From sequence record PZ027503.1: a stretch of 64,000 nt of DNA. One strand, written 5' to 3'. Every line of letters starts with the position of its first letter. Position 1 is the stretch's first letter. The notes under the pieces are model-generated. The model saw nothing but the letters and a program-made list of their open reading frames with translations. It ran no database searches and was not told the origin of the DNA. Shown here piece by piece: positions 17 to 3,589 of the stretch. A program made the position numbers and the translations under genes. The DNA is from a phage.

Positions 17-298
17 ATGGAGAGACATGCGTATAGCATCAATGAAGCTTTAGATCGTAAAGCTTGGTTTATTGAGGCAGTAAAGGCGGCATACCCCCAA
101 TTCTCATTCTGTGATTTCACTGGTGGCCCAGGATACATTACACATACAGCCTCTTTTGAGTTTCCTGGTTCACGTTATAAGGGTAATGTTTATTGGGACT
201 GGGATGAAAATAAACAACCTTCGGCTCAAGACTTCCGTTGCTATGTTTGTCAAGGCGATCAAGAAGCCCTTGACAAATACCTACAAAGTCTGGTATAG
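17..298 (+). CDS. hypothetical protein (93 aa)
   Basis: ORF track; followed by hairpin plus T-run. Confidence 0.5.
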   Translation: MERHAYSINEALDRKAWFIEAVKAAYPQFSFCDFTGGPGYITHTASFEFPGSRYKGNVYWDWDENKQPSAQDFRCYVCQGDQEALDKYLQSLV

Positions 299-315
299 TG
301 CCAGCATCTGAACAA

Positions 316-345
316 AGCCTCCTGTTTCAGGGGGCTTTTCTTTTA
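316..345 (+). terminator. rho-independent terminator
   Basis: stem AGCCTCCTG/CAGGGGGCT followed by TTTTCTTTT. Confidence 0.5.
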
Positions 346-356
346 TAGGAGGGAAT

Positions 357-842
357 ATGTTTCAAGTAAATGTCAATGTGCATAATAGTTACTCTGATTG
401 TGAAACGTGTGGCTATAATTCATCTAATGTTATTCGTATTAGTGGCGATTTAGGAGAAGCTTCTTTTGGAGAAGAAGCAAGTTGCTTTAGTGGTATGGAT
501 GCAGAATGGAATGATATTGCACATTGGTTAGTGAGCAAACTAAAAGAAAAAGAGAAACCATTTCCTACTCTGCTTGATCGTTCTCTTGTGGAAGATGCAG
601 GTAAAGCATACGCAGACTATGCGTATGCAGACGGGAAATATTTGGAAGATGATAAGGCTAACCATTTGCTTTATGTTTACTATGAAGCTGAATCTGCCTA
701 CGATAATTATTACAGCATGTCTAACATCCTACGTCTGTTTGCAGAGTTTGATATTTATTTCGAAGTAGAATTTTCAGAAGATGATACTTACGAGTACAAT
801 TCTTATGATCCATTTGAGGAGGAAGAATGCCAAGACGAGTGA
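357..842 (+). CDS. strongly acidic D/E/Y-rich hypothetical protein (161 aa), coupled to Sir2 gene
   Basis: ORF track; AGGAGG 5 nt upstream; 16-nt overlap with downstream ORF. Confidence 0.6.
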   Translation: MFQVNVNVHNSYSDCETCGYNSSNVIRISGDLGEASFGEEASCFSGMDAEWNDIAHWLVSKLKEKEKPFPTLLDRSLVEDAGKAYADYAYADGKYLEDDKANHLLYVYYEAESAYDNYYSMSNILRLFAEFDIYFEVEFSEDDTYEYNSYDPFEEEECQDE

Positions 843-1642
843 TTTTTGTAAGCGGTGCAGGTTTAAGTGCAGACAGTGGGATTCGAACATTTAGAACAGA
901 CACAGATAGTGGTCGTGCTTTATGGGAAGAATATGATTTAGAAGAGGTCTGCGATATTGGAGCTTTCCAAGCAGGTTATCGTGTTAGAACATCTCCAGAT
1001 CTTCCAGTGGTCGGTGGTGTAGACGAGAACGGTATGGATTTGTATGCCAAAACACACGAATTTTATAACAAAAGACGTGTTGAGCTTAAAGATGTACAAC
1101 CTAATGCTGCACATATTCAAATAGCAAAGTGGTTTAAGGAATATCCTAACCAAATAGTAAACTTGACAACAAACGTTGATGATCTACTAGAGCGAGCAGG
1201 TGTAGACAGAGATTCTGTTATTCACGTACACGGCTATCTTCCTGAAGTAGTTTACCGTATGCATCCTGGAGATTACAAAACACTGGTAGATATTGGTTAC
1301 AATAGTATAAACATAGATGATTATAACTGGGTGAAGCCTAATGTTGTATTTTTTGGTGAGGCTGCACCTTTGTATGCAGATATGGCTCACTTGTTCGATA
1401 CTTTGACCATGCAAGATTTGGTTGTAGTAGTAGGATGTTCAAACCAAGTTATCAATTTTAATTGGGAATTATTTCCTGCACTTAGTATGGGTACAAAAAT
1501 GGTTGTAGTTAACCCTGGAGTTAATTACGAAGAAACACTTCTCTATGAAGATCGTGGAGTTTTTGTTTACCGAGAAAAAGCTGCAACAGCCTTCAGCAAT
1601 GAAGGTTTCATTAAAATGGTCGAAGACCACTTAAACAAATAA
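827..1642 (+). CDS. Sir2-family (sirtuin-like) NAD-dependent enzyme
   Basis: motifs GAGLSADSGIRTFR, TNVDDLLERAG, HVHG, VVFFGE, VVVGCS; no Zn-ribbon cysteines. Confidence 0.8.
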   Translation: MPRRVIFVSGAGLSADSGIRTFRTDTDSGRALWEEYDLEEVCDIGAFQAGYRVRTSPDLPVVGGVDENGMDLYAKTHEFYNKRRVELKDVQPNAAHIQIAKWFKEYPNQIVNLTTNVDDLLERAGVDRDSVIHVHGYLPEVVYRMHPGDYKTLVDIGYNSINIDDYNWVKPNVVFFGEAAPLYADMAHLFDTLTMQDLVVVVGCSNQVINFNWELFPALSMGTKMVVVNPGVNYEETLLYEDRGVFVYREKAATAFSNEGFIKMVEDHLNK

Positions 1643-1649
1643 ACCACTC

Positions 1650-1675
1650 AAGGGGCTTCGGCCCCTTTCTTATTA
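1650..1675 (+). terminator. rho-independent terminator
   Basis: AAGGGGCTTCGGCCCCTT hairpin then TCTTATT. Confidence 0.55.
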
Positions 1676-2869: not shown

Positions 2870-2971
2870 TTATTTAGATGAGTCTAAAATGTCTTTTACT
2901 TTTGCCGTGATAACGTCTTGATATTTGTTAATAAGATAGCCTACAACTACACCTACGATAAATGAAACCAT
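2870..2971 (-). CDS. small hydrophobic peptide (33 aa)
   Basis: hand-translated MVSFIVGVVVGYLINKYQDVITAKVKDILDSSK; AAGGAG RBS; below ORF-track size cutoff. Confidence 0.4.
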   Translation of the reverse strand: MVSFIVGVVVGYLINKYQDVITAKVKDILDSSK

Positions 2972-2980
2972 TATTTCTCC

Positions 2981-3589
2981 TTATTTAAGTGGTGAGAGAA
3001 CAATCTCTCGGTTTTTTAAGAACCAAAGCATGTCATCTTGATCATAATCTGATCCCTCTGTAGTAGAATTTTTGATAGAATCAAAAAACCAACGAGGTAT
3101 ACCAAAACAACTTCCAGATGACTGCATGTCTTTCTGCGACATTTTAAATGTGATTGGAAAATCACAATTATCAATCTCTCGGATATCTGCTGAAGATAAG
3201 ATTGTAACTTCAACCAGTTCGTCGTTAGATGTAGTATCGTTGTCTTCCTGAATAATGTCAAATGCTTTTTGCACATCTTTTGCATCTAATGTTAAACCTG
3301 TGGCTTTCTGAAAAGCCGAAACAAAAATTAGAGCTTCTTCAGAGCAAGGGGCTTCCAGCAAATGAGCCATAATAGGTGACAAGCAAATGTTAAGATCTTT
3401 GTCATACCAACGAACAATCCACACAGGCGTTGCTCCGTTTTGTTTGTCACGAGCCAAAATTGTAACGTGCTGACCTTCTTCTGGTATATGATACCAACCA
3501 GAAAAACCAGGACCTGTAGTAGATTTTTTGACACGTGCTACGTGTCCAACTTCTAAAGGATCTTTACCATCCCAAATCTTCTCTTCCAT
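2981..3589 (-). CDS. hypothetical protein (202 aa)
   Basis: ORF track; AGGAGG RBS. Confidence 0.6.
   Translation of the reverse strand: MEEKIWDGKDPLEVGHVARVKKSTTGPGFSGWYHIPEEGQHVTILARDKQNGATPVWIVRWYDKDLNICLSPIMAHLLEAPCSEEALIFVSAFQKATGLTLDAKDVQKAFDIIQEDNDTTSNDELVEVTILSSADIREIDNCDFPITFKMSQKDMQSSGSCFGIPRWFFDSIKNSTTEGSDYDQDDMLWFLKNREIVLSPLK

Follow-up and report, generated by a model that had tools for sequence, protein, structure and literature searches.

Escherichia coli CobB (PDB IDs: 1S5P; 6RXJ), a class III/U lysine deacylase, is the described enzyme closest to the phage gene considered here, and relatives encoded by phages have already been discussed. Skliros et al. (2016; PMC5107563) described in silico the Sir2/cobB protein of schizoT4-like Vibrio phages, in which the zinc cysteines are missing, proposed that it deacetylates host Acs, and listed carriers that include T5 and GAP32. 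Iyer et al. (2022; PMC9503650, section 3.7.3), who also review the Sir2-superfamily NADases of bacterial immunity, assigned the majority clade among phage-encoded sirtuins, that of V5, Mydo, SP15 and jumbo phages, to RNA repair dependent on nicotinamide adenine dinucleotide (NAD+), a role drawn from gene neighbourhoods by analogy with KptA/Tpt1. We studied a member of this clade in a window of 64,000 nucleotides (nt) of phage DNA (the whole stretch analysed, from sequence record PZ027503.1), where the gene for a Sir2-like protein starts within the end of a gene for a strongly acidic protein. The original prediction took the two to be translationally coupled and suggested that they might be a functional pair. 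Comparison of the sequences across phages argues that they are neighbours through close packing and not the halves of an obligate two-part system, and we give an even chance to the fuller reading, in which they are two separate accessory genes, the Sir2 protein being an active CobB-like NAD+-dependent enzyme and the acidic protein acting alone.

The window comes from a Phapecoctavirus (Stephanstirmvirinae), a phAPEC8/ESCO13-like E. coli myophage. Of 127 phage records that match its first 2.4 kb, the best 20 are 99.5–99.9% identical to it. In most of these 20 a "Sir2-like / NAD-dependent deacetylase" is annotated already, with a hypothetical protein before it; the phage clade of the sirtuin has been catalogued and discussed before, and the gene pair itself is already annotated. 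The coordinates and lengths of the two open reading frames (ORFs), and their overlap, are exactly as first given (Table 1).

The Sir2 protein matches Pfam PF02146 with E=1.9e-22 (80.5 bits against a cutoff of 24) and phrog_2162 with E=3e-104, and the closest solved protein by sequence is CobB (1s5p, E=8e-19 with phmmer). Foldseek searches of BFVD and PDB likewise place CobB as the closest fold (E=2e-18, target-normalised template modelling (TM) score 0.85), followed by archaeal Sir2-Af1/Af2, with SIRT5 further down. The AlphaFold2 (AF2) model has a mean predicted local distance difference test (pLDDT) of 91.2, with 96–97 over the three-stranded sheet of the small domain. The NAD-binding and catalytic residues align with those of CobB and Sir2Tm, the elements shared with CobB being GAGxS, FR, Y-x-x-R, N, D, HG, FGE and GxS. 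Across 40 phage homologues the motifs G10-A-G12-x-S14, F22-R23, Y80/R83, T115-N116-V-D118, H135-G136, K170-P-N-V-x-F-F-x-E178, F176-G-E178, G203-x-S205 and N229-P230 are invariant. With these catalytic motifs and a ratio of nonsynonymous to synonymous substitution (dN/dS) of 0.08–0.10, a sign of strong purifying selection, Sir2 looks like a working enzyme, probably an active NAD+-dependent one, and the claim that it is a genuine sirtuin with canonical NAD-binding motifs is upheld by the Pfam match and the invariance of the catalytic residues.

The likeness to CobB has limits. Window Sir2 is only 26–31% identical to it, is without its basic N-terminal extension, and has lost the zinc cysteines, the C-H-C-C loop, the Gln of the TQNxD motif and VYPAA, the last replaced clade-wide by VINFNWELFP. 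The lack of zinc-ribbon cysteines had been recognised from the start: Tyr143 occupies the position of the first CobB Cys, the C-H-C-C loop is deleted, and no Cys aligns with the zinc ligands of CobB or Sir2Tm in any of nine phage sequences. Of the 11 sequences in an alignment, only the four Stephanstirmvirinae Sir2s have a 22-residue insertion (approximately residues 51–72). The Tyr-x-x-Arg dyad is kept, FYNKRR aligning with CobB FYNARR such that Y80/R83 correspond to CobB Y92/R95; in the sirtuin of jumbo phage 7t3 the dyad Arg is displaced by one position. In CobB and SIRT5 (Y102/R105) this dyad marks class III, binding the carboxylate and recognising succinyl and malonyl groups.

Whether the two genes belong together can be judged from where each occurs. 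By tblastn, 990 of 50,697 phage records carry the sirtuin, T5, rV5-like, Mydo and jumbo phages among them, and it matches 1,801 protein clusters in a metagenome-scale database, while the acidic family occurs in 132 records, about 7.5 times fewer. The acidic gene adjoins Sir2 only in Phapecoctavirus and Justusliebigvirus, and the two do not co-occur or co-evolve across lineages. When the genes next to Sir2 in T5, WalterGehring (rV5-like), Mydo, 7t3 and D483 were compared with the acidic family, hhalign probabilities were at most 1.4%, giving no homology. The acidic homologues of GAP32 and of two T4-like contigs from metagenomes adjoin DUF5856/MobD.6-like and thymidine kinase genes, with no adjacent Sir2. 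In Klebsiella phage KP13-26, of the same subfamily, Sir2 is intact (76% identity) and the acidic gene is deleted, leaving a remnant of about 17 codons, MNYQDMINYQTQCV, joined in frame to Sir2 just before its ATG and resembling the Justusliebigvirus N-terminal extension MSFDDMLKYE. The adjacency is lineage-specific and has been broken in nature at least once with the sirtuin kept. As a side observation, the KP13-26 deletion scar (stretch 2938–3003 of that phage) holds a 21-codon ORF head, MNYQDMINYQTQCVLNSGGIK, like an acidic N-terminus of the Justusliebigvirus type, and since this head is in frame with Sir2 a 292-residue, N-terminally extended Sir2 is formally possible there.

A similar picture emerges from the alleles. 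Sliding-window blastn against SKA64 (Phapecoctavirus) and ECGD1 (Justusliebigvirus) gives opposite affinities for the acidic gene and the Sir2 core (Table 1), and synonymous divergence (dS) agrees, being 0.30 to ECGD1 and 2.1 to SKA64 for Sir2 and 0.61 to SKA64 and 1.57 to ECGD1 for the acidic gene. From these discordant identity and dS profiles the Sir2 core is seen to be a cassette that genera have exchanged separately from the acidic gene. Window Sir2 is itself a chimera, about 45 codons at its end being SKA64-like and the remainder ECGD1-like. The mosaicism is also fine-scaled, with breakpoints within genes; by segment, the identity of the acidic gene to SKA64 is 67% (401–500), 96–99% (501–700) and 79% (701–800). 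The discordant histories, the loss in KP13-26 and the remote acidic homologues away from Sir2 leave the notion of a functional pair weakly supported. A dedicated pair is not supported by the counts of records, the KP13-26 loss, the unrelated Sir2 neighbours elsewhere and the independent recombination of the alleles; nor is the upstream ORF conserved with Sir2 outside the two genera, an outcome that the prediction itself had named as one that would tell against it.

What does stand is the arrangement on which the idea of coupling was based. The Sir2 ATG lies at 827 and the stop codon of the acidic ORF, TGA, at 840–842. The acidic ORF has its own Shine-Dalgarno sequence, AGGAGGG, at 347–353, and its final E-E-E-E-C codons also encode the Shine-Dalgarno sequence and ATG of Sir2 (gaA TGc), so that the terminal EEEE-C of the acidic protein is dictated by these overlapping signals. 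Overlap of start and stop and a Shine-Dalgarno sequence within the upstream ORF, the marks of a translationally coupled pair, are present in the window and kept in SKA64 (16 nt) and ECGD1 (13 nt). The overlap is compatible with translational coupling, though the dedicated pair that was built on it is not borne out. A fusion by programmed −1 frameshifting was considered and set aside: there is no slippery heptamer in the overlap, and Sir2 is equipped with a Shine-Dalgarno sequence and ATG of its own.

Table 1. Features of the two-gene locus and nucleotide identity along it; positions are those of the window.
Feature	Position	Strand	Description
Predicted sigma-70-like promoter	270..299	+	TTGACA-18-TATAGT with TG; consensus scan 11/12; within 3' end of upstream gene
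Intrinsic-terminator-like hairpin and T-run	314..338	+	11-bp stem; from scan; terminator annotated at same place in Schickermooser
Acidic orphan protein gene	357..842	+	161 residues; phrog_9509; isoelectric point (pI) 4.05
N-terminal beta-domain (residues 1–47)	357..497	+	Strands 2–15, 19–30, 35–47; pLDDT 81–93
Disordered acidic-aromatic C-terminal tail (residues 145–161)	789..839	+	pLDDT <50
Shine-Dalgarno sequence of Sir2	816..822	+	GAGGAGG; inside acidic ORF, over EEEE codons; read from sequence
Gene overlap, Sir2 start with acidic ORF end	827..842	+	16 nt; Sir2 in −1 frame relative to acidic ORF
Phage-clade sirtuin gene	827..1642	+	271 residues; phrog_2162; CobB-like class III fold; small domain cysteine-less
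Terminator-like hairpin closing the two-gene unit	1650..1667	+	From scan; annotated in Schickermooser
Acidic gene, segment	501–700		Identity to SKA64 (same genus) 96–99%, to ECGD1 (other genus) 46–53%
Sir2 core, segment	901–1500	+	Identity to SKA64 52–76%, to ECGD1 94–99%; Justusliebigvirus-like allele (blastn, sliding window)
Sir2 3' end and start of downstream gene, segment	1501–1700		Identity to SKA64 100%, to ECGD1 68–82%
Downstream gene, segment	1701–2000		Identity to SKA64 96–99%, to ECGD1 45–51%

On the reading we favour, the two accessory genes would lie head-to-tail in one short transcription unit between terminator-like hairpins. Sir2 would be a CobB-like class III sirtuin with the Rossmann domain, His135/Asn116/Asp118 and the FGE loop intact, and with a small domain predicted to keep its three-stranded sheet after loss of all zinc ligands. 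It would use NAD+ as ADP-ribosyl donor and release nicotinamide, the likeliest substrates being acyl-lysines on host or phage proteins, removed in the manner of CobB; since the Tyr80/Arg83 dyad is retained, anionic acyl groups (succinyl, malonyl) would be favoured. We lean, tentatively and with somewhat less than an even chance, to a CobB-like lysine deacylase because CobB is its nearest relative, both the FGE loop and the Tyr/Arg dyad are retained, and the gene is uncoupled from RNA-repair genes here. In classical sirtuins the FGE loop staples the peptide substrate. The subfamily also encodes NAMPT and phosphoribosyl pyrophosphate (PRPP) synthetase, and in the Salmonella jumbo phage 7t3 NAMPT lies 2 kb upstream of the sirtuin in a same-strand run, with a PhoH-family gene 1.6 kb downstream; the presence of these salvage genes fits a nicotinamide-releasing enzyme with recycling. 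(PhoH is near Sir2 in T5 as well, and more distantly in Phapecoctavirus.) The acidic protein, with a three-Cys beta-domain, helical core and disordered tail, would be an early protein of host-interaction or anti-defence type working alone, and the gene overlap would reflect compact phage gene packing, possibly with co-translation, and no functional dependence.

Several observations weigh against this. Loss of the zinc site inactivates classical sirtuins, Thr115 replaces the conserved Gln of TQNxD throughout the clade, and a conserved, clade-specific TDTxSG insertion sits in the cofactor-binding loop. The NCBIfam CobB models score far under cutoff (NF001753, 106 bits against 243; NF040867, 86 against 320), so Sir2 does not qualify as a CobB equivalog. 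In rV5-like phages and Mydo the gene neighbourhoods suggest RNA repair and not protein deacylation. Literature searches returned no experimental study of any phage sirtuin, and none for the locus tags. Host CobB reportedly restricts both T4 and lambda (PMC4271551), so the benefit of a phage-encoded CobB activity is not obvious, and a phage-borne CobB-like enzyme is something of a puzzle. Finally, the stop/start overlap is kept in two genera despite partners only 37% identical, which could reflect a real functional link.

The foremost alternative, which we consider unlikely though well short of dismissal, is that Sir2 is an RNA-repair enzyme resembling Tpt1/KptA, transferring the ADP-ribose of NAD+ to the RNA 2'-phosphate left after healing, with the acidic gene uninvolved; a substrate might be tRNA cut by host anticodon nucleases, the ligated RNA being made functional again. 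By sequence, window Sir2 falls within the clade typified by V5, Mydo and SP15 (phrog_2162, identities 46–60%). By tblastn it is 52–60% identical to T5-like, 56% to Mydo, 46–47% to rV5-like and 30–40% to Vibrio and enterobacterial jumbo-phage sirtuins, and in a protein alignment 54–60% identical to those of T5-like phages, Mydo and rV5-like phages; a figure of 37–40% was also obtained for the Vibrio and jumbo-phage versions. It shares with the clade (T5 'cobB' type) the motifs FRTDTxSGxALW, FYNKRR, TTNVDDLLERAG, HGYLPE, KPNVVFFGE and GCSNxVINFNWELFP as well as the lack of zinc cysteines; it differs in having the acidic gene in front, in the two genera only. The assignment of the clade to RNA repair by neighbourhoods (PMC9503650) could be confirmed in two cases: in WalterGehring Sir2 comes after RNA ligase and one hypothetical gene, a polynucleotide kinase and a phosphoesterase being adjacent, and in Mydo the order is phosphoesterase, RNA ligase, ATPase, Sir2, DNA ligase, MazG. 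The rV5-like and Mydo proteins are 46–58% identical to window Sir2, this phage too encodes an RNA ligase, and the invariant Tyr80/Arg83 dyad could equally bind phosphate.

Against this, the window gene, unlike the rV5 and Mydo sirtuins, does not adjoin RNA ligase, kinase or phosphoesterase genes. No RNA ligase, kinase, phosphoesterase, 2H, HAD or Nudix gene, and so no RNA-end-healing gene, is present within the Sir2 transcription unit of the window, and in this lineage (phage anhysbys) the RNA ligase is about 28 kb from Sir2. There, in a syntenic cluster of Stephanstirmvirinae (phage PD06; anhysbys MN850648.1, around 102.6 kb), Nudix, RNA ligase and ATP-dependent DNA ligase genes stand together with NAMPT and PRPP synthetase, and with no Sir2. 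The cluster, which lies outside the window, resembles an NAD+-salvage (NARP2-like) module plus an RNA-repair module. Tpt1/KptA also uses NAD+ as ADP-ribosyl donor, and some clade members adjoin RNA ligase or end-healing genes; its fold is however unrelated to that of sirtuins. The FGE loop, which holds peptides in classical sirtuins, is invariant. T4-type Pnkp/Rnl1 repair leaves no 2'-phosphate, and we know of no sirtuin shown to act on RNA, both of which count against an RNA substrate.

Sirtuins of this clade are present in about 2% of sequenced phage genomes, the model phage T5 included, and two incompatible predictions now exist for them, a deacylase that activates host enzymes and a remover of RNA 2'-phosphates. 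Biochemistry of any clade member would inform how NAD+ is used during infection. The acidic neighbour, not being a conserved partner, is a poor handle on sirtuin function; it is at best a separate candidate host-interaction protein, and the locus adds little to the sirtuin question.

The upstream protein is as acidic and aromatic-rich as originally described. Its pI of 4.05 falls in the lowest percentile among the window ORFs, its net charge is −27, and the fraction of Asp, Glu, Tyr and Phe, 0.39 overall and 0.52 in residues 81–161, is the highest, above the 99th percentile, of 109 window ORFs. A dN/dS of 0.18 against the SKA64 allele indicates a real gene. The AF2 model (pLDDT 78.6, predicted TM score 0.62) has an N-terminal beta-hairpin domain, four helices, a terminal strand and a disordered tail. 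The only invariant residues of the family, C15-x2-C18 with G38, A41 and C43, all lie in the N-terminal beta-domain, which may be a metal site. C158 was considered as a fourth ligand and rejected: the overlapping ATG dictates its TGC codon, and remote family members lack it. The acidic-aromatic tail is present in 16 of 16 aligned members, including ones that do not overlap any Sir2. The family is phage-only, with nine close clusters among its 132 records and 16 representatives found by a profile search of 1.84 billion proteins, and it evolves fast, being 37% identical between sister genera where neighbouring genes are 80–96% identical.

The most likely description is a stand-alone, fast-evolving host-interaction protein. 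A more specific version, which is compatible with the reading of Sir2 favoured above and which we hold to be distinctly unlikely, is a stand-alone DNA mimic or anti-restriction inhibitor of the Ocr/ArdA functional class. The charge and pI would suit it, as would a phage-only family of rapid divergence with T4-like and jumbo-phage homologues among small, mostly unannotated accessory genes; like Ocr, ArdA and Arn the protein is small, very acidic, phage-encoded and fast-evolving. On its composition the mimic is possible, but it shows no sequence or fold similarity to Ocr, ArdA or Arn, no known DNA mimic is among its sequence or structural matches, and AF2 gives a folded alpha/beta domain with a 17-residue disordered tail. 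To our knowledge the three-Cys beta-domain is absent from those mimics. Identity with Atd1, an anti-TIR gene reported from exactly Phapecoctavirus, Justusliebigvirus and Lazarusvirus, was rejected, Atd1 being a MazG-like (p)ppGpp pyrophosphatase.

Closer to the original prediction, and in our judgement quite improbable, is a dedicated Stephanstirmvirinae pair, an NAD-manipulating takeover or anti-defence module in which the acidic protein binds the sirtuin as an inhibitor, through its tail as a substrate mimic occupying the cleft, as a targeting subunit, or as a zinc module in trans. The overlapping stop and start with an internal Shine-Dalgarno sequence in two genera, purifying selection on both genes and the bracketing of the unit by terminators speak for it. 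The three invariant cysteines of the acidic protein, facing a Sir2 small domain with none, would suit it too, and GAP32 carries both families (Sir2/cobB according to PMC5107563), though not adjacent. Yet Sir2 does without the partner in KP13-26 and some 850 other phage genomes, all equally cysteine-less; members of the acidic family are found away from any Sir2; and partners only 37% identical precede a 96%-identical Sir2, the recombination breakpoints falling where the two genes meet. The zinc module in trans was rejected: the sirtuins of T5, rV5-like phages, Mydo and KP13-26 are equally cysteine-less and have no such neighbour. We regard as very improbable the bolder proposal that in Stephanstirmvirinae the acidic protein is a sirtuin partner, its tail gating the cleft or recruiting, within an NAD+/ADP-ribose takeover or counter-defence module, or is alone an anti-defence inhibitor of new fold.

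Sir2-superfamily enzymes of bacterial immunity act as NADases, and window Sir2 shares with the defence enzymes (ThsA, DSR1/2, SIR2-HerA, SPARSA) the Rossmann fold of the superfamily as well as the Asn and His of catalysis; it differs from them in being single-domain, with no sensor or partner domain, of classical PF02146 type and the product of a lytic phage. That it is a NADase of defence type is unlikely, as no PADLOC family, defence SIR2 models included, matched Sir2 at E<=0.01 and Sir2, a classical PF02146 protein, is nearest to the deacylase CobB. The remaining proposal, a constitutive NADase or a protein or small-molecule ADP-ribosyltransferase serving takeover or interfering with NAD-derived immune signalling, can draw on the immunity enzymes, on the departures of the clade from classical deacylases (zinc site absent, Thr115 for Gln, cofactor-loop insertion) and on the NAD+ salvage enzymes of carrier phages, but it seems unlikely given the PADLOC and PF02146 results, the absence of the macrodomain partner of SirTM systems (no Macro match in Pfam for the adjacent acidic and 90-residue orphans, and no macrodomain label among the annotations over 40 kb around the locus) and the harm that uncontrolled NAD+ hydrolysis would probably do to a phage dependent on host metabolism.

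The two-gene unit closes a rightward run of genes for nucleotide metabolism and auxiliary functions (ThyX, NrdAB, rml genes, PhoH, HslV, methyltransferases, a NinI-like phosphatase and a DprA-like gene), beyond which a long array of small orphan genes runs leftward towards it. The first hairpin separates the pair from the upstream gene, so that terminator-like hairpins bracket the unit on both sides. The candidate promoter is near-consensus and overlaps the last codons of the upstream gene, and since the hairpin directly follows it, transcripts from this promoter would start with the terminator stem-loop, which might either attenuate or stabilise them. KP13-26 has the same TTGACA...TATAGT and then hairpin upstream of its Sir2 (its stretch 2855–2925).

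The NinI-like (calcineurin-type) phosphatase and the DprA-like Rossmannoid protein, the nearest candidates for RNA-repair companions of Sir2, lie about 5 kb upstream of the window start in the same rightward cluster, with some 10 genes and two terminators between them and Sir2; both protein classes are occasional companions of phage sirtuins according to Iyer et al. (PMC9503650). After the Sir2 terminator comes a 90-residue ORF (1686–1958, + strand; phrog_15991) with its own Shine-Dalgarno sequence. It is labelled 'Sir2-like protein' in the records of ESCO13 and Ro121lw, yet has no Sir2 similarity and only sub-threshold DUF5050 and Smr matches in Pfam, and the label looks like annotation carry-over. 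The identity of this ORF is 100% to SKA64 and 47% to ECGD1; KP13-26 has no annotated gene at the position. Several 'Campylobacter phage' records (MG065639, MG065650, MG065689 and others) match the acidic protein, Sir2 and RNA ligase genes of E. coli Stephanstirmvirinae and Vequintavirinae with 97–98% protein identity, and are probably mislabelled or contaminant phages.

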